From the NCBI GenBank assembly GCA_037969175.1, contig JBBKWX010000157.1, positions 1-52,761 on the forward strand: a stretch of 52,761 nucleotides of DNA, given 5' to 3'. Under the pieces are notes generated by a model. It was given only the letters and a program-made list of their open reading frames with translations, was not told where the DNA came from and made no database searches. A program made the translations under genes and the position numbers. The stretch comes from Bacteroidia bacterium. Lineage in GTDB: Bacteria > Bacteroidota > Bacteroidia > AKYH767-A > JBBKVM01. The stretch's first letter is position 1. Every line of letters begins with the position of its first letter. Positions 8,127 to 23,500 of this stretch are shown here, in pieces.

Positions 8127-9572
8127 ATGAGAAATTTTTGCCTTTTACTTTCATTCTTTTTTATTCTGAGCTCATGTAAATATGACAAGGGTGAGCTACC
8201 GAATGTGAGCGGGTATCCGGATGATGTTGCAAAAATAGTTATTGTGAAATGCGCTACCAGTGGATGTCATAATGATGCGAGTAAAGATGCTGCCAGTGGT
8301 TTATCTCTAAGTTCCTGGGACCGTTTATTTGAAGGGACCCGAAATGGTGCAGCTGTAATTCCTTACCGACCTGATCAAAGCACGATGATGTTTTTTACAA
8401 ATACATTTGCTGATCTGGGACCATCCATTAATCCGACCATGCCCCTGGGAAATACTCCGCTGACACGAACAGAGCTTGAGGTATTGCGCAGCTGGATAGC
8501 ACGCGGTGCGCCTGACCAAGATGGCAATATCGCATATGCTTCTAACAGCAACAGAAGAAAAATGTATCTCACAAATCAGGGATGTGATCTGGTGGCAGTA
8601 CTTGATGCAGCAACCGGCAAAGTGATGCGTTATATTACTGTCGGCACCAAAGCTTCGATCGAGAGTCCGCATATGGTTAAGGTGAGCCCCGACGGACAAT
8701 TCTGGTATGTGGTTTTTTTGGGTGGAGATGTGATACAAAAATTCAGAACTTCGGATGATTCATTTGTAGGAAATATCATGATTGGTGGAGGCAATTGGAA
8801 TACACTTGCGATCACAAACGATTCAAAAAAAGCGGTTGCAGTTGATTGGACAATCAATGGAAAAGTAACTGTCGTGGATCTTGAAAATATGATCAAAATA
8901 AAAGATATCCAGGGTTTGAAATGGCCGCATGGATCTTACTTTGACAATACCGGAAACATCGTTTATATAACTACACAAACCGGAAATTATATCAACAAAT
9001 TAGATATCACAAATATAAATTTGCCACAAGTAGAACAGATCGTTTTACAAGCCGGAATGCCGGTTCTGGATATTTCCTGGTTTGATCCGCATGAAGTAAT
9101 TTTAAACAGTAGCGGAACTCGATTGTATGTAACTTGTCAGAAGACCAATCAGGTGAAGGTGATCAATACTGCAAATGATCAGGTGATCGCAACGATCAAT
9201 GTGGGTATCTATCCGCAAGAGATGGCGATCTCGGAGAGCAAGAATTTGTTGTTTGTAAGTTGCCCGGAAGACACTGCATCGTTTGCAGGAAAAAGAGGTT
9301 CTGTTTCTATCATCGATATGAATACAAATGCAGTAGTAAAAAATGTGTTTACAGGTTATCAACCACATGGAATTATTTCGGATGAACTGAATGGATTCAT
9401 GTACGTTGCAAACAGAAATGCAAGCACTGACGGACCGGCTCCGCATCATTCAACAGAATGTGCAGGGCGCAACGGATATGTGACCCGGATCTCTTTGAAT
9501 TCGCTGACCTTAGATGTAAATTACAAACACGAAGTAACTGTAGACCCCTACTCTTTTGCAATCCGTCCCTGA
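8127..9572 (+). CDS. Lipoprotein with putative c-type cytochrome domain plus YncE/YVTN-like beta-propeller
   Basis: Lipobox LSSC; CATSGCH then GLSLSSW...VIPYRPDQS...MP..PLT..E...WIARGA (PSCyt1-like pattern); propeller repeats SPDG, YVTCQ, INVGIYP. Confidence 0.75.
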   Translation: MRNFCLLLSFFFILSSCKYDKGELPNVSGYPDDVAKIVIVKCATSGCHNDASKDAASGLSLSSWDRLFEGTRNGAAVIPYRPDQSTMMFFTNTFADLGPSINPTMPLGNTPLTRTELEVLRSWIARGAPDQDGNIAYASNSNRRKMYLTNQGCDLVAVLDAATGKVMRYITVGTKASIESPHMVKVSPDGQFWYVVFLGGDVIQKFRTSDDSFVGNIMIGGGNWNTLAITNDSKKAVAVDWTINGKVTVVDLENMIKIKDIQGLKWPHGSYFDNTGNIVYITTQTGNYINKLDITNINLPQVEQIVLQAGMPVLDISWFDPHEVILNSSGTRLYVTCQKTNQVKVINTANDQVIATINVGIYPQEMAISESKNLLFVSCPEDTASFAGKRGSVSIIDMNTNAVVKNVFTGYQPHGIISDELNGFMYVANRNASTDGPAPHHSTECAGRNGYVTRISLNSLTLDVNYKHEVTVDPYSFAIRP

Positions 9573-9954
9573 TAAACCCATCGTATTTTTTGACGGCACT
9601 TGTTTGCTGTGTAATCGCGCGGCTAATTTTATCCTGAAGTTTGATAAAAAAGATAAATTATATCTGGCCACATTGCAAGGAGATACTGCAGATTTTTTAT
9701 TGACAGAAAGACATCTTCCGGACTCTGCTGTTTTGTATGAAGATGGAAAAACTTATATAGAATCTGATGCTGTGATCCGCATTGCACAAAAGTTGGGAGG
9801 GATCTTCAAACTTGCAGGTATTTTCAAATTACTGCCACAAAAATTTCGGGATTATCTCTATAATTTCGTAGCACGACATCGTACATCCTGGTTTGGTCGC
9901 AGCGAATCCTGTCGCTTGCCCAAGGCCGAGGAGAGGCATAAGTTTTTAGATTAA
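9556..9954 (+). CDS. DCC1-like thiol-disulfide oxidoreductase (DUF393)
   Basis: FDGTCLLCN (DxxCxxC) and RDYLYNFVARHRTSWFG; TTG start overlaps the upstream gene. Confidence 0.9.
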   Translation: MQSVPDKPIVFFDGTCLLCNRAANFILKFDKKDKLYLATLQGDTADFLLTERHLPDSAVLYEDGKTYIESDAVIRIAQKLGGIFKLAGIFKLLPQKFRDYLYNFVARHRTSWFGRSESCRLPKAEERHKFLD

Positions 9955-9961
9955 AAAATAA

Positions 9962-10004
9962 AATGGAACACTGATGACACGGATTATTACGGATTTACAC
10001 GGAT
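9962..10004 (+). repeat. 9/10-mer CACGGAT-type array in a convergent intergenic gap
   Basis: AATGG AACACTGAT GACACGGAT TATTACGGAT TTACACGGAT. Confidence 0.8.
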
Positions 10005-10011
10005 AAAAAAG

Positions 10012-10446
10012 TTACTCCTCCTCCTTCAGCTCCAAGGTCAGCTTTTCGAAATTGATCACTGCATTAAATTTCTTAAGAATATCTGAACCTATCACGCCAT
10101 CGATGGCTTCGATACCCAGTTTTTCATAGCTCTCATTTACATGATTCAGATCGAGTAAAACCATTTCATAATCCTGCAAAATAATTTCACCCAGCTTGAT
10201 ATTTTCAAGGATTGTTTGCTGACTCTGCATGGTGTTGGTTCCTAATCCGGTTGAGAGACGTTCGCTGTCTGTAAAGTGCATGGGATCGGCAAAACGGCTC
10301 ACTCTGTTGAGATCCAAGACAGATTTTGATGCTCCGGTATCGAGTAAAAGATGCGCAGGTGATCCGTTTATTTCTACATGGATCATGAGATGAAATCCAT
10401 CACCTTCGATATCCATTAATTGTAAGAGAATGATACTATTTTTCAT
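10012..10446 (-). CDS. Retropepsin-like (clan AA) aspartic protease
   Basis: LLLDTGAS and DGVIGSDIL motifs; ATG 10446 preferred because the longer ORF runs through repeat DNA. Confidence 0.88.
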   Translation of the reverse strand: MKNSIILLQLMDIEGDGFHLMIHVEINGSPAHLLLDTGASKSVLDLNRVSRFADPMHFTDSERLSTGLGTNTMQSQQTILENIKLGEIILQDYEMVLLDLNHVNESYEKLGIEAIDGVIGSDILKKFNAVINFEKLTLELKEEE

Positions 10447-10462
10447 TATTGGAAAGATAGGG

Positions 10463-10677
10463 AAATGAATTAGGAATGGGGAATGTGAAATGTGGAATTT
10501 TAAAACAAAACGGAACACGAAAAATATTTCCCGCAGAACTCGCTGATGAGCGCAGAATATATTCTATAATTAATTGATGATCTCTGCTTCTCATTGTTTT
10601 ATTTTACCACTAAGGTCCTTAGAACACTTAGTGTCACTGAGTGTACTTGTGACCTTTGTAGTAATTTTTAATCAAAA
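10463..10677. repeat. Direct repeat, copy 1 (215 bp)
   Basis: Manual alignment with 14539-14754 shows 4 substitutions and a 1-nt indel. Confidence 0.97.
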
Positions 10678-10686
10678 TAAAGCACG

Positions 10687-10717
10687 AAAAAAGGCCTTGT
10701 TTGCACAAGACCTTTTT
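10687..10717 (-). terminator. Intrinsic terminator of the beta-helix gene (possibly bidirectional)
   Basis: AAAAAA-GGCCTTGT-TTGC-ACAAGACC-TTTTT. Confidence 0.75.
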
Positions 10718-10765
10718 AGGAGCAGATCGCTAAATTATTTATTTGAGATTGGACTTTTGTTATTT

Positions 10766-12805
10766 CTAAACAATATCAGATTCATCAATTAGACCATAGT
10801 ACTTATCCAATGGGAGTTTGGTAGAGTTAATCCCTTCTTCCAAAATCAAATATGGAACATAGTTTAAATTTTGGTAACCGAAAAACACTCTATTTCCAAC
10901 TATTGTATTAGAAGCACAACGGTTGAATTCATCATTAACATCTCCTGCTTCTTTCACTCCATGTTCCATCGTCACAAACTTTATAAAAGATGTACATTCG
11001 TCAAGCGTATACAAATGCTTTGGGTTATAGCCGATCATGATGTTTGAGGATACAATGACAAACCTTGAATTCCAGAGCAAAATGCCTTGGCTTTTATGCT
11101 TCCGGTCAGGAAACTCAGGATCAATTATAGTTCCCGGGTTTTTAATTGTATTCCCGGTTATTGTCCCCGTCATTGAACCAATGAGTTTAATTCCACCTCT
11201 GGTATCATTTTCCAATTCCTTATTTGCAGGCATTTCACTTATATAAACATACGCAGGATTTATTATGACGTTGGATACAATTGTAAATTCAGAACAATCA
11301 TTTAATTGGATGCCACTTCTAGTTGTACTGCCGGAAGGAATATGAATATTACAAGTATTAAATAAGGGAGTTCCAGTAATAAGGTTTGAACTAATTGTTA
11401 TACTTTTCCATTTTCTGGCAGTTATGCCATAAGCTTCATTTCTATCGGCAGGATTCAGTCTTGCTCTTCCACTTCCAATGATTTGATTTCCATGTAATGT
11501 TAAACCGGCTGAATAAGAATGATACGTTTCTCTAAGGATGGGTAACTCACTTTCATGTTCATTGTATCCAAAATCTTCATCGTCTGTTTCTTCCAGAAAC
11601 ATATAAGGTAAATCAATTTCTTGTGTTGGAATACCTGACAAATACAAATCACTTTCTTCTGATGGAATTTGAAAATTAATATTCTCATCTTCAATAAAAC
11701 TTGCATCATTATCACATGTTATGGCAGCCTCAGGTTTGAAAATACCCCATTCACGAATTTGATTATTAATCACATGACAACTTAACTGGCCATATGGAAA
11801 AGACAAATGACCTCCGCCTTCATACGTAAGTTTGATACCTGCCTTACCTGCTTTATAGATGCGATTATTACTGATTCTGATATTGAGTACACCACTTGCT
11901 TCTAAGGTCACCGGTAAATCTTCACTGGCTTTCAAGCCTCTAACACCAATGCAGTTATCACCGGTATATTCAAAATAATTATTTTGAATAACAACTTGGC
12001 TTTGACCGGCACCACTGATAGTCTCTGAATAAAACCCCATTCCTGTGGTTGACTTTTTATCGTTTCTAACAAACTCACCAATAGAACCAGATGGTTCAAG
12101 TTCTTCTAACGGATGATATTCATAAGCCCCGTTTTCTTCCGTGTTTGGATTAAAACCTACAAAATTGTTTTCAAGAAGAATCTGTTTTGATTTAGATATA
12201 TCAATTGCACCTCCATTCATATTGTAAAACCTACAATTTCTGATCACTAACTCATCTGCAACAAATTTAAGTTCATGAGCATCTTCAAAAGTTAGGTTCT
12301 CCAGAATACAAAAACGAAGATGTTCACCGGTAGGATGAGTAAATATTGGTTTTATGAGTGCCACTTGTTGAGAAGTTACATTTGGACTTTGAGCAGTCAA
12401 TATTGGCAGGTAAACTGATTTAAAAACCGTACCACTACCCGAGCCAACCACATAAACTTGATTTCTTAAGACTACATTATCAAATAAGTATTCTCCTTCC
12501 GGAAAATAAAATCCCCACATTTGAAGATGAGATACTGTGTTTGGATCGCCTGGTAATTGGCTGTCATTCTCTGTTCCATCTTTTATGTTAACTTGTGGAT
12601 TCGTATTACCAAGTCCTGGATCGCCCCCTAAAAGATCCACCCATTCTTCAAGTACTCTAACGTATCTTGCTTGAAAAAGAAGTCCTAAATCATTTGTCAA
12701 GCTTGCTCCAGTATCTGGCTTGACAGAAATAAGAACTGCTTCCCAAGGAGTATCAGAATTTGCATATTTCACATGAGTAATAGTTGTTACGTCTATTGTG
12801 TTCAT
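10766..12805 (-). CDS. Right-handed parallel beta-helix protein (pectate lyase 3 / tailspike-like), no signal peptide
   Basis: FYFPEGEYL...LRNQVYVVGSGSGTVFK cap motif; repeated IxNNxF / IxSNxI / ITGNTI rungs. Confidence 0.8.
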   Translation of the reverse strand: MNTIDVTTITHVKYANSDTPWEAVLISVKPDTGASLTNDLGLLFQARYVRVLEEWVDLLGGDPGLGNTNPQVNIKDGTENDSQLPGDPNTVSHLQMWGFYFPEGEYLFDNVVLRNQVYVVGSGSGTVFKSVYLPILTAQSPNVTSQQVALIKPIFTHPTGEHLRFCILENLTFEDAHELKFVADELVIRNCRFYNMNGGAIDISKSKQILLENNFVGFNPNTEENGAYEYHPLEELEPSGSIGEFVRNDKKSTTGMGFYSETISGAGQSQVVIQNNYFEYTGDNCIGVRGLKASEDLPVTLEASGVLNIRISNNRIYKAGKAGIKLTYEGGGHLSFPYGQLSCHVINNQIREWGIFKPEAAITCDNDASFIEDENINFQIPSEESDLYLSGIPTQEIDLPYMFLEETDDEDFGYNEHESELPILRETYHSYSAGLTLHGNQIIGSGRARLNPADRNEAYGITARKWKSITISSNLITGTPLFNTCNIHIPSGSTTRSGIQLNDCSEFTIVSNVIINPAYVYISEMPANKELENDTRGGIKLIGSMTGTITGNTIKNPGTIIDPEFPDRKHKSQGILLWNSRFVIVSSNIMIGYNPKHLYTLDECTSFIKFVTMEHGVKEAGDVNDEFNRCASNTIVGNRVFFGYQNLNYVPYLILEEGINSTKLPLDKYYGLIDESDIV

Positions 12806-12840
12806 AATTTTTGTATTTTTATTTATTCAAAAGCAAATAG

Positions 12841-14497
12841 ATGAAAGTTTTTTTTTTTAGTGCAAGTTTTGTTTATAACTTTTTTTCAGGCATTTAGCCA
12901 ATCTTATCCACAAAAACTTTGGGATAAGCGATATGGGGGTTTTGGTGGTGACCAAACTTTTGCAGCACCTATAAAAATAGCTAAAGATGGCAATCTGCTT
13001 TTTTTAGGTGAGTGTCCAATTGGTCTAAGTGGAGACTTAAGTACAGTGTCTAAAGGTTCAGGAGATTTTTGGTTATTTAAAATTGACACTTCGGGGGTTT
13101 TAATTTGGGAGAAAGGAATTGGAAGCACTAACTGGGATTTTGCCAGAGATTTTGTTGAATTGGATGATGGGGGATTCCTCATTGTTGGGTACACTTCAGG
13201 AGGTATTGGTGGTGATAAAACAGAACCATCAAGAGGTGATGTAGATTTTTGGATAGTTAGGTTAGATTCATTAAGAAATATCTTATGGGATAAAACCTAC
13301 GGTGGTAATACCGAAGATGTGGTAAGGTCTGTTTCTATTACAAATGATGGAGGTTTTTTAATAGCAGGCAAAACAAGGTCTAAACAAGGATTTGATGTAT
13401 CCGAACCCGGCTTTAATCCTGGATTGATTACACTCCGCGACTTTTGGGTCTTGAAATTAGATAGTTTAGGAAATAAACTATGGGATAAGAGATATGGTAC
13501 TGATGGAGATGAAGAGTGTTATACTATCACAAATACATTGGATGGTAATTATTTGTTAATTGGATGGACTTCTAGTTATACAGGTGGGCATGTCTCTCAG
13601 CCTTCTAGGGGTGGGCAAGATTATTGGGTTTTAAAGATTGATACTATTGGTAATAAGATTTGGGATGCCCGTTTTGGTTCCTCAGATAATGATATGCAAA
13701 ATTATACATCCCAAGCCACACCAGATGGAGGGTTTATCACATGTGGTTTATCAAGTGGTCCTGCTGATTACGATAAGTCTGAAAATCTACGGGGAATGCG
13801 TGATTACTGGGTAGTAAAATGTGATAGCCTCGGTATTAAACAGTGGGATAAAACATTAGGTGGTGCGCATGATGAAGTATTTTCGGGTATTGCAATTATT
13901 CCAAGTGGTGGATTTTTAGTATATGGTTCATCAAAAAGTCAAAACACTGGAGATAAAACTCAGAATAACTGGCCAGGTTCCAGCAACAATATGTGGGCTG
14001 TAAAACTTAGTGAAAATGGTACTATTGTATGGGATGTGCGCTGGGGTGGTAATGTTGGAGAGTATGCAGCCAGTGCAGTTGTAAATAATGGAGTTTACTA
14101 TTTATATGGGGGAACTTTTTCAAACATTAGTGGTGATAAATCACAGAATAATTGGAGTGCAACTCCTGTTTCAAATCCTGCATCTGACCTGTGGATTGTA
14201 GCCTTTACAGAACCACCTCTTGGTTATGAAAATCTTGGCGATAGCAAGGGAGGTATTGATGTATTCCCTAACCCATTCAGAGAAATGCTTGAAGTTGGAG
14301 CAGAATTTAAAGAACCCGGAAAAGTCTTAGTAGAATTATTTGACATCACAGGCAGAAAAGTTTTTGGAAATTATTACTCTATCTCTACAGCTTTTTTTAA
14401 TAAAGAAATTGAACTTGGGTTTTTGAAAGCCGGAGTTTATTCTCTTGCTGTAACTACATCTCTTGAAAAAAGGACCAGGTTGGTAGTGAAAAAATAA
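12841..14497 (+). CDS. T9SS type A sorting-domain repeat protein; start frameshifted at T11 (12848-12858)
   Basis: About 8 repeats D(F/Y)W.(K/R).D..G...WDK.YGG; C-terminal VFPNPF...LFDITGR...GVYSL...RLVVKK. ATG 12841 is in frame only with T10 (or T13); the ORF track starts at GTG 12860. Confidence 0.85.
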
Positions 14498-14529
14498 TTA
14501 CGAATTACGAATTACCGTAATTCATAATT
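14496..14529. repeat. Head-to-head heptamer array (AATTACG x3 / CRTAATT x2)
   Basis: AATTACG AATTACG AATTAC C GTAATT CATAATT, overlapping the stop codon. Confidence 0.8.
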
Positions 14530-14538
14530 GAGACACAA

Positions 14539-14754
14539 AAATGAATTAGGAATGGGGAATGTGAAATGTGGAATTTTAAAACAAAACGGAGCACGAAAAA
14601 TATTTCCCGCAGAACTCGCTGATGAGCGCAGAATATATTCTATAATTAATTGATGATCTCTGCTTCTCATTGTTTTATTTTACCACTAAGGTCACTTAGA
14701 ACACTTAGTGTCACTGAGTGTACTTGTGAACTTCGTGGTAATTTTTAATCAAAA
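14539..14754. repeat. Direct repeat, copy 2 (216 bp)
   Basis: Same orientation as and near-identical to 10463-10677. Confidence 0.97.
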
Positions 14755-14760
14755 AAAATC

Positions 14761-14792
14761 AAAAAAAAGCCTCACGAATGCGAGGCTCTTTT
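14761..14792 (-). terminator. Intrinsic terminator of gyrB-mdh
   Basis: Minus strand AGCCTCG-CATTC-GTGAGGC hairpin followed by T8. Confidence 0.8.
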
Positions 14793-14809
14793 GAAATATG
14801 TTTGGTAAT

Positions 14810-15751
14810 TTATTTTGTTACCAATTGCATGTTATCCAAAACTTCCATCACTTCTTTAACAGCAGCGGCAGAATTAACAAGTAACTCTCTTTCGTCTTCG
14901 TTCAGTTGAAGTTCGATGATTTCTTCGATACCGTTTTTTCCAAGTTTAACAGGTACTCCAAGGTAGATATCTTTTAAACCATATTCACCTTGCAACCAAG
15001 CGCAAACCGGGAAAATTCTTTTCTGGTCGCGCACGATTGCTTCTGCCATCTGAGCTGCAGCTGCACCGGGAGCATACCATGCTGATGTTCCCATTAGATT
15101 CACCAATTCTCCTCCGCCTTTCTTAGTTCGATCAACTATCGCTTCGAGCTTATCAGCATCGATCAATTCTGTTACCGGGATACCTGCAACAGTAGTATAT
15201 CTTGGAAGTGGAACCATGGTATCGCCATGACCACCCATCAACACAGCCTGAATATCTTTTGGTGATACATCCAATGCTTCTGCAAGAAATGCACGGTATC
15301 TAGCAGTATCAAGGATTCCTGCCATTCCGAATACACGCTTAGAATCTATGCGTGCTGTAAGGTAAGCACAATAGGTCATCACATCCAGGGGATTTGAAAC
15401 CACAATGATCTTACAATCCGGAGAATGTTTGATTATATTTTCGGTTACCGATTTAACGATACCGGCGTTGGTAGCGATCAGGTCATCACGACTCATACCC
15501 GGCTTACGAGGAAGTCCTGAAGTGATGATCACAACTTCAGAACCTGCTGTTGCAGCATAATCATTGGTAACACCTTTTACTCTTGAATCATACAGATTTA
15601 TTGGTGCAGTCTGCCAGATATCAAGCGATTTTCCTTCAGCAATTCCTTCCTTGATATCAAGCAAGATCACTTCATTCGCTAGTTCTTTATGAGCTATAAC
15701 ATTTGCGCAGGTAGCTCCTACATTCCCTGCTCCAACTACTGTAATTTTCAT
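14810..15751 (-). CDS. mdh: Malate dehydrogenase (LDH-like)
   Basis: GAGNVG, PRKPGMSRDDL, SNPLD, LDTAR, GGHGDTMVP. Confidence 0.98.
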   Translation of the reverse strand: MKITVVGAGNVGATCANVIAHKELANEVILLDIKEGIAEGKSLDIWQTAPINLYDSRVKGVTNDYAATAGSEVVIITSGLPRKPGMSRDDLIATNAGIVKSVTENIIKHSPDCKIIVVSNPLDVMTYCAYLTARIDSKRVFGMAGILDTARYRAFLAEALDVSPKDIQAVLMGGHGDTMVPLPRYTTVAGIPVTELIDADKLEAIVDRTKKGGGELVNLMGTSAWYAPGAAAAQMAEAIVRDQKRIFPVCAWLQGEYGLKDIYLGVPVKLGKNGIEEIIELQLNEDERELLVNSAAAVKEVMEVLDNMQLVTK

Positions 15752-15788: not shown

Positions 15789-17780
<1,992 letters not shown>

Positions 17781-18840: not shown

Positions 18841-20484
18841 TTAAAACGAATATGTGACGCCTCCCAGGATATTAAGTCGCTGGTCAGGATAGTTGATCCA
18901 TCTTTCGTAATTCGATGCACCCAGGTTGTTAAAATTGAGAAACAGAGATAGTATTTTACTGTATCTGTATTCCAATCCAAGATTCACATCAACATATCCA
19001 TCCAATTTTCTTTCTTTTCCTCCATCTGCAAAATCCAGCGCATATATTCCGGATGCATGAAAGATCCCAAGGCTGATATTGATCTTGTCCTCTATGCTAT
19101 AAATTCCTGCAAGACGTAACTCCAGCATGGGTTTGTGATAGGCGCGGGCATAAAGACTTGGTGAATAATTATGATAATCCAGATCCGTCTGGATGCGAAT
19201 CTTCTTTTTTATTCTAAAGGTTAATTCACCATGAATATTTAATTCATTGATATCATCATAAACGATACTGAATTTATTCAAGGGTGTTCTGCTGGTATCA
19301 CTCACATACAAATATTCATTGTTGGAATTCTTGTATTCAATATGTGTGGAATACGAGATAGCATTGCTGAATGCACCTCTGAATCCGGCTTTAAAACTCA
19401 ATTTATTATCGGTATTCAAAGCAACACTGTAAGGACTATAATATCTGTTTTCTTCCAATAATTTTCTGAATCTGTTAGGTCTTACATCTCCATCAAGTTT
19501 ACCAAAGACAACAATAAAATCTTCAACCAATTTATAATCGATATCAACAAATGGATAGAAATGAAATACGGTTGATCCGTTTCCTCCTTCAGAAACAACT
19601 TTCACTCCACCCTTCAGATTAATGTCCTTTTCGTTATAGGCAAGATAAGGCAGGATACGCACCAGGGATGACTTTCCTTCGAATTGAGTCCCTTTCATCG
19701 TTGCCAGATCCACATCGAGATCCATTCCCAATCTCAGGTCATTCAACAATTTATTTGCATCCGCCTTAAAACGAAATGCTCCTTCTTGTCTCAAATAACT
19801 ATCCTGCAATCCGTAGGCATTGACACCAAATTTATACCTGATCGCATCTTTATCTTTATTCTTACTGACCCAATTAAAATTACCATCCAGTGTATTAATG
19901 ATCTGTTCGGTGATCTTTTTTGAGATCAGGGTATCTGCTGTTTTGAAACCGTAATAATGAAATGCATCACGATTATAATTTACATCCGCATCGATACTGG
20001 AAGTATCAAAGAAACGCGTACCGAACAATTTAATTCTGTTGTCGCTGTATCCCGGAAAACCTACATCTGATATGGTTCCGGTTGATGATTTGTGATAGAT
20101 ATGTGTTCCGGCACTATAATTTTTGGAACGCAAACTGTTGATATAAACTTCTCCATACGGAGTGGTATAATTTCCGAATCCGGCTTTGATATAAGATCTG
20201 TATAACTTAACAATATTATCATCCTTGATCTTGACAGCTTTGATGATAGCAGCTTCATACTGCGTGCTGGCCTTTTCACTTTTGATCCCATAATTCATTT
20301 CAGGAACTGTATAGACTGAAGTATCTCTGCCCGGAGAATCACTGATCTTAAAAGCATCAGATAGTACAGGCTGGTATGGTTTCACAACATCTATTTGTTC
20401 TCCTTCAACTGTTCCCTGTGCATTTAGTGATGCAGGAATCAGGATAGCGCAAAATAGGATAGCACTGATCTGTATTTTTTTCAT
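18841..20484 (-). CDS. Outer-membrane beta-barrel protein (TonB-receptor-like)
   Basis: Signal peptide MKKIQISAILF...LNA-Q from ATG 20484; amphipathic strands; C-terminal GVTYSF beta-signal. Confidence 0.8.
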   Translation of the reverse strand: MKKIQISAILFCAILIPASLNAQGTVEGEQIDVVKPYQPVLSDAFKISDSPGRDTSVYTVPEMNYGIKSEKASTQYEAAIIKAVKIKDDNIVKLYRSYIKAGFGNYTTPYGEVYINSLRSKNYSAGTHIYHKSSTGTISDVGFPGYSDNRIKLFGTRFFDTSSIDADVNYNRDAFHYYGFKTADTLISKKITEQIINTLDGNFNWVSKNKDKDAIRYKFGVNAYGLQDSYLRQEGAFRFKADANKLLNDLRLGMDLDVDLATMKGTQFEGKSSLVRILPYLAYNEKDINLKGGVKVVSEGGNGSTVFHFYPFVDIDYKLVEDFIVVFGKLDGDVRPNRFRKLLEENRYYSPYSVALNTDNKLSFKAGFRGAFSNAISYSTHIEYKNSNNEYLYVSDTSRTPLNKFSIVYDDINELNIHGELTFRIKKKIRIQTDLDYHNYSPSLYARAYHKPMLELRLAGIYSIEDKINISLGIFHASGIYALDFADGGKERKLDGYVDVNLGLEYRYSKILSLFLNFNNLGASNYERWINYPDQRLNILGGVTYSF

Positions 20485-20539
20485 TTCAAACATTTTCTCT
20501 GAGAAATATGAATTTGAATTTTGTGTTTGCTTTTTCATG

Positions 20540-23500
20540 TTATTCAGTGCTCTCATTTTCTTCTTTTCCTTCTCTGTTTGTGCCACTGTTTGCCGGTGGT
20601 GAAATCTGATCCAGTTTTTGCTGAGCTATTGTTTTCAGATCTTCACCACTATAATTTTCGATGATACTCTTGTAAGTATGTATTGCCTGGAAAGTATCTG
20701 CCAGAGCCACATAATTATCACCCATCAATATAAATCCTTTAGCAATCCAGTAATCATATGCCGGAACCTGATTGATCAATTCAAACAAGCTAGCCTGTGA
20801 TTCCTTATGCAAGGTTTGCTTATGCTGAACATAGGCAATATTGTATTTTGCTTCTGCTCCCATTTCAGAATTTGCGATCTTTGCTACGGAGCGGAATTCA
20901 CGAAGTGCAGCTATCAGATCATTTGTTTCGAGCAATGATTTTGCTCCTAGTAAGCGGGCTTCCTGCAATATTTCATTAGGAACTTTCTCCATGTTAATGA
21001 GCTTGTCAACAGCATTCATCACATTCGTATATTCTCCCAATTTGTAAGTACAACGAACGATACCCAATCTGGCATCAACCAGATTGTTTCTCACCTCTGC
21101 AACTGTTTCCAACTCTGTATAATTCTTCAGTGCATTGGAATAATCTTTTCTGGAATATGTGATCCCCGCTAATTTCAACAAAGATTTTTCAGTGAAATTA
21201 TTTCTTGGTTTATTCACTACAAACTGATAACCTGTTATAGCCTGATCAAATCTTTTCTCGCGGTAATCGCATTCAGCTTTATAGAATGTTGCATTGATCG
21301 AGAAGAAACCGTTTGGATACTTACTGAGATAATCAGAAAAGCTGGTCATGGATCCGGCACAATCCCCTTTCATGTATTTATTTTCGGCTGCATGATAGGT
21401 CAATGAATCCGATGCAGCTACACTGATAGAAGCGCTGGGTATTCCTTTCACATAATCCAGATAACCCTGAGCATCTCCGTTATTTACATAGATAACTTTC
21501 ATTCCCGAAAGTGCTTCTGCTGCTTCCGAAGAATTTGGGAATTGGCTGATCACGGATTTATAAGTCTCTATTGCTTTGCTATCTTCCTTTTTATTGTACT
21601 GCACAAGTCCTTTTCCAACCAATGCTTTGCGGTAGTATGAACCACTGGGATATTCATTGATGATCTTATCGTAAGCCTGTAAGGACTTATCAAATTCTCC
21701 GATCAGTGAATATGTTCTTGCAGTTTCATAGATCGCATCATCCAGATAAGATGATTTTGGATAATTACTGATCAAGTTTTGCATCACTTTTATCTTCTCC
21801 TCAGACCGGCCTTGTACACCCAGAATAATTCCTTTTTGGTATAAAGCATAATCGGCAGCTTTTGATTTAGAATCAATAGAGTTATTGTAATAATCAACCG
21901 CATTATCATATTCCCGCATCATAAAAAATGCATCCCCAACTCGCATGTTTGCATCATCAAATCTAGCTTTATCCGTCTGTTCTTTTTTAGCAACATACTT
22001 TCTGAAAGCAGTCATGGCAGAAGCATAATCCTCCTTCTTAAAATAGCAATACCCGATATTATATTGAACAAGATTAAAAAATGGAGTTGTAATGGCTGCC
22101 GGAGCAAATACGAATTCCTGATAATTCTTTAAAGCGGCATCAAATGAATTTTGACGGTATAGAGACTCCCCTTTCCAATAGCGGGCAAGTGCTGCAAGCT
22201 TTTCATCAGATGGATTTGCAATTGCTTTATCAAAATTGGAAATTGCATTTTTCAGATCACCATCATTGAACAACTCGAGTGCTCTGTAATAAGCACATTT
22301 CTGTAATGCTGTTCTTACTCTAGGTGTTTTGGTTTTAATACTTTCTATGGCTGAAAGGGCATCTTTATAATTTTTTGTAGTTAGAAATACCTGAGCAAGT
22401 AATTCATTGATCTCATCCATCCTTCCGGAGTTTGGAAAAGACTTCATGTATTCCTGTAATGTAGAAATGGCCACAGGCTGGAAGTTCAACTCTACACTCA
22501 ACTTTGCATAATTAAATAATGCATCTTCCTGGATCGCTTTATTATGTTCCAACTTGGATGCAAACTGAAATGCATTTCTTGCACTTTGTTTATTACTCAT
22601 TTTAATGAAACAATCGGCCAGATGATAGTATGCATTTTGCGCAAGCTCATCCGTTCCATCAACTGATTTTTCAAAATTGACGATGGCTTTCGCCCAGTTA
22701 CTTGTGCGGTAATATGCATAAGCTAGTTGATAATAATCTTCGCGGGTTGGTGAGGAATTATTATCCTGATAATCCTGAAGAAAAGGAATGGACTCGGCAT
22801 ACCTGGCTGTTTTGTAATAGGATTCGCCGATCAGACGCGTAATCTCAATTCTGTCTTTAGGTCCTGCTTGAGGTAGCAGATTCGTGCCATATGAAATAAC
22901 ATCATCATATCGACCTTGAAAATAATAGATCTGAACAATATATTGAGGAACAACCGGACCAAAAGCCGGGTCGTCTTTCAGGCTCATAAAGCCTTTCAAA
23001 GCCGTTTCATAATTCTTGTTGATATAGGCTATATGGGAATAATAATACAAAGCAGGAATAGCATATTTCGAGTTACCATTTTTTACTTCCAAAAACTTTT
23101 CAGAAGCTTTTTCGAATTCGTTTCTATTATAATATGCGTAACCCAATTTGAATTTATGTTCAACAACCTCCTGTTCGGTAAGGTACCAGGCATCCACTTT
23201 CTCAAACCAATCAACTGCATTTTTCCAACTTTTCTTTTTGTAATACAATTTACCCAGTTGGAATGCAGCTTCTTTTGCTCTGGAACTTTCAGGATATTTA
23301 TTAACAAATTCCAACAATAAAAACTCGGCATCTGCATGGAAAAGTTCGAAGGCACATACAGCTCTGAGGTAGAGTGCATCTATCTTCGCTTCATGCGACT
23401 TATCCTTATCTTTTACGATAAAGGACTCGAATGCTTCTCTGGCTGCAGCATACTTTTCTTTTCTGAATAGATCCATTGCTTCTTGAAATTCAGCGGATGG

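Follow-up and report, generated by a model that had tools for sequence, protein, structure and literature searches.

A two-gene islet bracketed by direct copies of a mosaic intergenic repeat between mdh and an aspartic protease gene in a Bacteroidia bacterium

The DNA considered here is a 52,761-nucleotide stretch (the window), the entire contig JBBKWX010000157.1 (C157) of the Bacteroidia bacterium assembly GCA_037969175.1, a genome of 3.09 Mb in 254 contigs and 92% complete. Within it, two divergent genes are bracketed by two direct copies of a 215/216-bp mosaic repeat and lie between mdh, encoding malate dehydrogenase, and a small gene of a clan AA aspartic protease (Table 1). Judged from the gene order in relatives, the enclosed DNA is a real insertion, restricted to this lineage, into a conserved junction of the mdh terminator and the protease gene. 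We give about an even chance to the reading that the two direct repeats are the footprint of a general recombination event that placed the unit, and we read the repeat as not being a dedicated or reusable docking site.

The inserted gene pair and its bracketing repeats

That the cargo entered this locus, as was proposed in the initial annotation of the DNA letters, is supported by the mdh loci of relatives, all of which belong to other genera (nearest gyrB 82% amino-acid identity). The protease gene adjoined the mdh terminator in 11 of 16 such loci, with gaps of 20-170 bp. The sample comprised 11 unselected loci, obtained by a DNA search of 40 relatives (6 positive), and 5 chosen ones (5/5 positive), which had been picked since the DNA search already showed mdh and a protease match side by side; among the 11 positive loci, one (L037 = G018) belongs to an unpublished genome. 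Among the other five, one carried the gene of a DCC1-like thiol-disulfide oxidoreductase directly after mdh and four had no protease gene up to a distance of 1.5 kb. A second set consisted of 80 gyrB loci of species genomes; mdh was located within 6 kb in 10 of them and was accompanied by the protease gene in 6, the two genes being adjacent in all six cases (gaps of 26-122 bp), and in three more loci mdh was followed by the DCC1-like gene. In none of the relatives' loci compared was a cargo homologue present between mdh and the protease gene, nor did any of them carry both cargo genes here without the repeats; none had a copy of the repeat there, and the gaps of 20-170 bp contained the terminator hairpin alone. 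The ancestral junction envisaged earlier (mdh, terminator, one repeat copy, protease) is therefore borne out as far as the adjacency of the two genes is concerned, while the single repeat copy is missing from the relatives' empty sites. The time of the insertion is not narrowed by this comparison, since the relatives are all from other genera. The small protease gene itself appears to have been gained or lost at the mdh junction, because four relatives (L125, L127, L138 and L032) are devoid of it and have the DCC1-like gene directly after mdh.

The direct copies of the repeat, with starts 4076 bp apart, sit exactly at both junctions of the inserted DNA. The inserted unit (4.08 kb) consists of one mosaic repeat, a terminator, the gene of a beta-helix protein, the gene of an SBBP-repeat protein destined for the type IX secretion system (T9SS) and an AATTACG hairpin. 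Re-examination upheld the initial description of the copies: they have the same orientation and five differences, namely four substitutions (10515 A/G, 10653 C/A, 10657 T/C and 10660 A/G, left versus right) and one indel, the right copy having an additional A after 10617; they enclose exactly two genes plus a terminator; and each copy is followed directly by the terminator of a leftward gene, that of the 679-aa gene on the left and that of mdh on the right. The extra A was also present in the left-flanked copy in contigs of two public sequencing runs, and this indel may not be a fixed difference.

The duplication is regarded as real and recent because the copies are 98% identical over 215 bp, including the spacers, which are found nowhere else in the genome. 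The match between the copies (E = 1.8e-101 in a search of the source genome) is far beyond chance, and the second copy is a true duplication rather than the outcome of two independent chance assemblies. Identity falls towards the right end of the repeat, where three substitutions occur in 8 bp; beyond the copy ends a weaker BLAST match continues to 10697/14772 (236 bp, 95.8%), with about 80% identity up to 10697. The longest identical stretch between the copies is about 100 bp, and the copy-specific variants are located 17-53 bp from the unique flanks. Only two full-length copies were detected in the 3.09-Mb genome, the 51 other matches each spanning no more than 71 bp of the repeat, and so abundance, which the initial annotation had raised as a possible trivial cause, does not explain the pair. 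Exact-word searches returned no matches either for a 27-mer from a unique spacer (one genome per species, 185,579 species) or for a 23-mer from the repeat (JGI, Joint Genome Institute, metagenome contigs), and genome and metagenome contig searches revealed no conspecific genome or contig.

No features of a dedicated mobile unit were recognized. There are no terminal inverted repeats joining the two ends of the repeat, no conserved recognition-like motif at its ends and no visible target-site duplication at the repeat or the insertion. Folding of the repeat as single-stranded DNA is only slightly more favourable than that of shuffled sequences (z -2.1), and Rfam gave nothing significant on 9500-15200, the best hit (E 0.046) being far under the gathering score. 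In line with the initial annotation, a tRNA search of the whole window was negative, and no integrase or transposase domain was found in the open reading frames (ORFs) of at least 110 aa scanned at positions 1-30000. The genome contains three PF00589 matches, on C87, C119 and C8 and none on this contig, and no match to PF01609. An integron cassette or a site-specific island was rejected for want of a linked integrase or recombinase at 1-30000 and of a tRNA in the window. A MITE (miniature inverted-repeat transposable element) or another non-autonomous transposon was also rejected, the repeat being without terminal inverted repeats and present in only two copies.

The cargo consists of a 679-aa right-handed beta-helix protein and a 545-aa SBBP-repeat beta-propeller protein with a type A T9SS C-terminal sorting domain. 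The N-terminus of the former does not resemble a signal peptide. Among 5.8 billion clustered proteins its relatives were limited to three full paralogues, all from its own genome, and a profile search of 1.84 billion representatives retrieved the own-genome paralogues followed by a partial beta-helix match (E = 3.5e-11). At E <= 1e-10 none of 145 further genomes from the order had a counterpart of it, and it had no relatives in metagenome contigs, no PHROG family and no phage record (tblastn). The four paralogues share an invariant 14-residue N-terminus, and at all four loci of this orphan family an SBBP/T9SS paralogue lies alongside in divergent orientation. The structure model of the 679-aa protein is poor (mean predicted local distance difference test score, pLDDT, 55.8), and Foldseek with this model gave only generic beta-helix matches with template modelling (TM) scores of 0.14-0.31 (mannuronan epimerase, GH110, PL6 lyases, tailspikes); in view of the poor model and the generic matches no enzyme class was assigned. 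The 545-aa protein has nine further paralogues in the genome (43-61% identity), and for the two cargo proteins taken together, identity to the nearest paralogues is 38-61%. Three more loci (C171, C222 and C93) also carry the divergent beta-helix/SBBP pair, with extra tandem copies. Judging by these paralogues, the cargo is a member of a lineage-specific, multi-copy gene-pair unit; being native to the genome and accompanied elsewhere by tandem extra copies, it would make a tandem or circular donor plausible. No trace of the 215-bp repeat was found in the flanks of the three other pair loci or of the other paralogues, with which the locus shares the AATTACG hairpin alone. The AATTACG module is also located 3' of three paralogues on C222 and C38, and on this distribution the predicted hairpin belongs to the 3' flank of the cargo.

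Composition of the repeat and the repeat landscape of the genome

A fine search of the repeat gave 49 matches outside C157, which split it into three cores: positions 6-37 of the repeat (4 matches elsewhere in the genome), positions 57-98, TTTCCCGCAGAACTCGCTGAT (18 matches), and positions 132-208, the CTTAGTG-type palindrome (27 matches). The spacers between the cores are unique sequence. By its composition, then, the repeat appears as a one-off mosaic of short periodic and palindromic cores that are common in the intergenic DNA of this genome. The periodic modules reported in the initial annotation were recovered with Tandem Repeats Finder (TRF), GGAATGT (x3.7) and CACTGAGTGT (x2) being located inside the repeat. 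At least some of the short periodic words seem to be order-wide, because the ACACGGAT-type module at 9959-10010 has 85-93% matches in genomes of other families of the order (e.g., G013, G030 and G032). A separate MITE-like family, its members about 540 bp long, sharply delimited and ending in terminal inverted repeats TGTCCGGAAT.../...ATTCCGGACA, was also observed in the genome in roughly 25 long and 45 partial copies (e.g., C110:2120-2660, C19:21445-22010 and C136:11812-12329). In its interior lies the 40-bp CTTAGTG core that the 215-bp repeat also contains, this core being all that the two have in common, and Rfam had no match for the element.

The genome is unusually rich in intergenic repeats. 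Its self-comparison yielded 995 inter-contig pairs (length 80 bp or more, identity at least 85%), and 77 kb of 326 kb of intergenic DNA (about 24%, with crude ORF calls) matches another intergenic region; families of 24-47 copies are present. Six homologues of the Y1 transposase PF01797 were detected, an unusually high number for one 3-Mb genome. Five of the six genes are surrounded by arrays of GC-rich palindromes, each with its own palindrome type, in the manner of repetitive extragenic palindromic (REP) sequences and REP-associated tyrosine transposases (RAYT). A link of the repeat to the Y1/RAYT genes was considered and dropped, since the palindromes flanking these genes are unrelated to the repeat.

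Genes of T9SS substrates are numerous as well: there are at least 150 type A sorting domains in the 3.09 Mb, and an iterated T9SS profile recognized 208 of 2403 crude ORFs (about 8.7%). A dispersed repeat occurred within 200 bp downstream of 42/202 T9SS ORFs versus 212/2169 other ORFs (2.1-fold; Fisher p = 1.2e-5) and within 200 bp upstream of 22/172 versus 126/2066 (p = 0.002), values that rest on crude ORF calls and may be inflated by paralogous flanks.

Pairs of repeats with only two copies in the genome, both on the same contig and 0.5-12 kb apart, were found at nine loci, and all nine are direct, none inverted; this census is biased for the longer repeats, as an assembler can walk through an arrangement A-R-B-R-C and breaks at an inverted pair exceeding the read. 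The mapped pairs bracket 1-11 ORFs, each copy being intergenic, and T9SS substrates, large ones in several cases, are present in 6 of the 11 mapped loci, namely the mdh locus, C224 (a 1558-aa CHU_C protein), C12, C37, C159 and C8. The copies of the C224 pair are 97-100% identical, one of them with an 88-bp extra piece. At C87 the bracketed DUF2268 gene is absent beside the DUF2851 gene in 29/29 relatives' loci, and the other flank is not conserved either. The purC/deacetylase flanks at C224 are not syntenic, both genes being found in 1/29 relatives' loci and in another orientation there. For the flank gene at C91, matches at E <= 1e-40 were obtained in 2/40 other genomes and were weak (31% and 40% identity).

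The surroundings of the islet in the window are those of a housekeeping neighbourhood. The order on the right is mdh, gyrB, rluD, and the position of the mdh terminator is kept in relatives. On the left, the DCC1-like gene adjoins the protease gene or mdh in several relatives, and the start of the protease gene is the ATG at 10446 rather than the GTG at 10518 inside the repeat, since the relatives align from residue 1. Further to the right, between rluD and the gene of a TPR protein, a 581-aa ORF (18841-20586, minus strand) had no Pfam match at E <= 1e-5.

Table 1. Features of the islet, its surroundings and related loci (positions in the window unless a contig is named)
Feature	Position	Strand	Details
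DCC1-like thiol-disulfide oxidoreductase gene	9556-9954	+	PF04134, E 1e-22; left neighbour
Periodic module ACACGGATTA x2.8	9977-10004		TRF, period 10; between convergent 3' ends of DCC1-like and protease genes; outside the duplication
Clan AA aspartic protease gene	10012-10446	-	144 aa; PF13650, E 4.6e-10; left flank
Mosaic repeat, left copy	10463-10677		215 bp; three cores joined by unique spacers
GGAATGT-type core	10463-10500		left copy
Periodic module GGAATGT x3.7	10473-10498		TRF; inside repeat
CGCAGAA-type core	about 10520-10560		left copy
CTTAGTG imperfect palindrome	10604-10664		61 bp; left copy
Periodic module CACTGAGTGT x2	10625-10644		TRF; inside repeat
Predicted intrinsic terminator of the 679-aa gene	10688-10717	-	13-bp stem and U-run, -19.5 kcal/mol, z -4.2; directly after left copy
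Cargo gene 1, right-handed beta-helix protein	10766-12805	-	679 aa; Pfam PF13229, E 1.8e-10
Divergent intergenic region of the cargo genes	12806-12859		54 bp; homologous divergent region on C222 and C93
Cargo gene 2, SBBP-repeat beta-propeller with type A T9SS C-terminal sorting domain	12860-14497	+	545 aa; PF18962, NF047494, TIGR04183
Predicted AATTACG-repeat hairpin	14495-14530	+	right after the stop codon of cargo gene 2; -11.6 kcal/mol, z -6.4
Periodic module AATTACG x2.9	14496-14515		TRF; beside repeat
Mosaic repeat, right copy	14539-14754		216 bp; direct orientation relative to left copy
Predicted intrinsic terminator of mdh	14759-14794	-	hairpin and U-run, -18.1 kcal/mol, z -5.7; directly after right copy
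mdh, malate dehydrogenase	14810-15751	-	TIGR01763, E 1.5e-130; right flank
gyrB	15789-17756	-	TIGR01059, E 1.7e-294; conserved neighbour
Orphan beta-helix family members	window 10766-12805; C171:2733-4793; C171:4892-6853; C93:234-2261; C222:33-455
PF01797 homologues (six)	C104:389-733; C249:513-854; C22:2378-2707; C128:2945-3286; C76:19363-19692; C238:9272-9556
Other two-copy direct pairs	C224:7922-8121/13994-14281; C12:2811-2894/8526-8609; C37, C253, C159, C8, C87, C52, C43

Possible origins of the islet

Direct orientation, exact bracketing of the inserted DNA, and the lack of a recombinase and of transposon ends are the reasons for which a single event of the cell's general recombination is preferred as the source of both the insertion and the duplication. 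Two routes could lead to the present arrangement. In the first, a repeat resident at the site would have undergone a single crossover with its counterpart on a donor unit in circular or tandem form (Campbell-type integration or unequal exchange); in the second, a piece slightly exceeding one unit of a tandem donor array would have been inserted illegitimately. Direct repeats of 215 bp with 98% identity are good substrates of RecA for loss or amplification of the DNA between them. RecA could thus loop out the cassette as a 4,076-bp circle, leaving one repeat behind, or amplify it by unequal sister exchange, and for this reason the gene pair is probably a gain-and-loss polymorphism.

Several observations weigh against this origin. 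The donor repeat required for a Campbell-type event was not found, there being no third composite copy in the genome, at the other pair loci or in the public collections. The relatives' empty sites, all in other genera, have no single repeat copy and so give no sign that the repeat was at the site ahead of the cargo. The repeats are 98% identical versus 38-61% for the cargo proteins and their nearest paralogues; therefore either the donor was not part of this genome or the repeat was duplicated after the insertion. The nearest genome represents a different genus (best gyrB amino-acid identity 82%), too distant to date the event. Finally, the junctions are read from an assembly of the short-read metagenome type.

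The main rival to a single general recombination event is that the cargo was inserted by an unrelated event and that the mosaic was later copied, or gene-converted, from one intergenic region to the next permissive one, an explanation which we consider possible and still rather unlikely. The bracketing of the cargo would then simply reflect that no other intergenic regions are closer to it. It draws on the high proportion of intergenic bases (about 24%) matching other intergenic regions and on the families of 24-47 copies, as well as on the nine local two-copy pairs, which make such pairs a habit of the genome. The decay of identity towards the repeat's right end is in keeping with an older homology that conversion has renewed in part, and the gap between the 98% identity of the repeats and the at most 61% identity of the cargo paralogues is consistent with it too. 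However, this course requires two events instead of one, and the repeat has neither the terminal inverted repeats nor the target duplication of a mobile unit. Furthermore, all nine local pairs are direct, unlike what copying in random orientation would give, this bias being partly an artefact of assembly where repeats exceed the read. The DUF2268 gene at C87, the sole other testable case, is likewise absent in 29/29 relatives' loci.

A broader proposal, which we hold to be improbable, is that AT-rich mosaic repeats constitute a genome-wide scaffold, similar to NIMEs (the intergenic mosaic elements of Neisseria), capturing, duplicating and discarding cassettes of T9SS cargo without a linked recombinase; the insertion between mdh and the protease gene would then be one example, and C224, C12, C37, C8 and C159 would be further ones.

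Improbable, too, in our estimate, is an artefact of assembly, in which the chromosome would read protease-repeat-mdh, the cargo with one repeat would come from elsewhere (a different locus or strain, or a molecule in circular or tandem form), and the assembler would have worked this loop into the contig. The assembly is fragmented (254 contigs) and of the short-read type, paralogous pair loci are on short contigs broken at repeats, and an integrated cassette yields the graph A-R-B-R-C just as A-R-C with a separate circle R-B does. Public data at the locus, comprising four runs of one sediment sample (Logan contigs, 3-8x depth), cover 9900-15100 by 5-17 short pieces per run, fragmentary and showing no joints. 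No junction is bridged in the run contigs by 31 or more bases, the right copy's own junctions are without cover, and one run contig mixes the left- and right-copy variants at 10515, 10617 and 10653. Against an artefact stand the distinct variants 17-53 bp from the unique flanks and the longest identity of about 100 bp, which reads could phase, and the fact that no contig of the genome corresponds to an empty allele or to a separate cargo-plus-repeat unit.

A docking site was suggested in the initial annotation. A dedicated docking system, in which a trans-acting enzyme (a Y1 homologue of the IS200/RAYT type or some other recombinase) would insert and excise cassettes at the mosaic or one of its cores, is highly improbable: the six PF01797 genes, a core of the CGCAGA type (86% similarity to core B of the repeat) some 430 bp upstream of the C249 gene, the twofold association of T9SS genes with dispersed repeats (42/202 versus 212/2169 downstream, p = 1.2e-5) and the T9SS substrates among the other direct-repeat-bracketed genes speak for it, but the composite occurs only twice in the genome, as this one pair and with no reuse of the site seen, the other gene-pair loci have no repeat, the GC-rich palindromes around the Y1 genes are of quite another sequence, the repeat ends bear no recognition-like motif or inverted repeats, and no enzyme gene is linked to the locus at 1-30000.

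Should the preferred origin by general recombination hold, the locus would be a clean natural example of a secreted-protein gene pair gained in a housekeeping neighbourhood through general recombination alone; the same route would probably permit its loss, which bears on the turnover of T9SS cargo genes, of which such organisms have a very large set. There is also a practical warning in it, as repeat-bracketed islets in short-read metagenome bins are indistinguishable from assembly loops without long reads.

Comparison with known systems

Intergenic mosaics of comparable build are known from Neisseria, where NIME arrays lie by preference beside genes of surface or secreted proteins; as substrates of homologous recombination, they were proposed to let the genes they flank be exchanged or inserted (PMC1797815). 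Like those arrays, the repeat described here is a mosaic of many short repeat families, its cargo includes a T9SS substrate, and T9SS genes in the genome are 2.1-fold enriched near dispersed repeats. NIMEs are, however, defined there by 20-bp dRS3 inverted repeats ATTCCCN8GGGAAT flanking RS elements, and that report states that NIME-type arrays were not seen outside Neisseria (PMC1797815). The dRS3 motif occurs once in the 3.09 Mb (on C46) and neither in the window nor in the repeat, the cores of which are instead AT-rich periodic words of 7-10 bp and a 61-bp palindrome, in another phylum; and in place of an array on each side there is one duplicated mosaic. Because the repeat has no dRS3 motif, the locus is an analogue of NIME and not a member.

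A different kind of likeness exists with the minimal mobile elements of Neisseria, small cassettes of one to three whole genes, without a recombinase, that lie between conserved genes and are thought to be moved by homologous recombination (PMC1797815). The islet resembles them in its small number of whole genes between conserved genes and in having no recombinase of its own. Exchange of minimal mobile elements proceeds via homology in the conserved flanking genes and is not known to need a duplicated repeat.

With REP sequences and the bacterial interspersed mosaic elements (BIMEs) of enterobacteria and pseudomonads, clusters of which have been associated with recombination, the repeat shares its extragenic location, often between convergent genes or after terminators, and its mosaic build (PMC3184786; PMC2817692). 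It is unlike them in that REPs are GC-rich palindromes of 20-40 bp in alternating orientation and linked to RAYT, whereas the cores of the repeat are AT-rich and of different sequences. In Salmonella, REP sequences reportedly occur where tandem duplications are joined. REP/RAYT sets are present elsewhere in the genome, their palindromes being unrelated to the repeat described here.

Finally, direct repeats at both junctions are a trait of Campbell-type integrations and amplifiable units, for which one expects a single repeat at the empty site and, through RecA, looping out or amplification in tandem; the islet departs from these in that no donor copy of the repeat was found and neither a circle nor an amplified form has been observed. 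The view that the locus represents an undescribed system is not sustained, as recombinase-less cassettes between conserved genes and mosaic intergenic arrays beside surface-protein genes had already been described in Neisseria (PMC1797815). Rather than as a new class of mobile element, the locus is most fittingly treated as one more case of an islet between repeats, created by general recombination and kept unstable by it, and its closest known analogues would be the mosaic repeat arrays and the minimal mobile elements of Neisseria.

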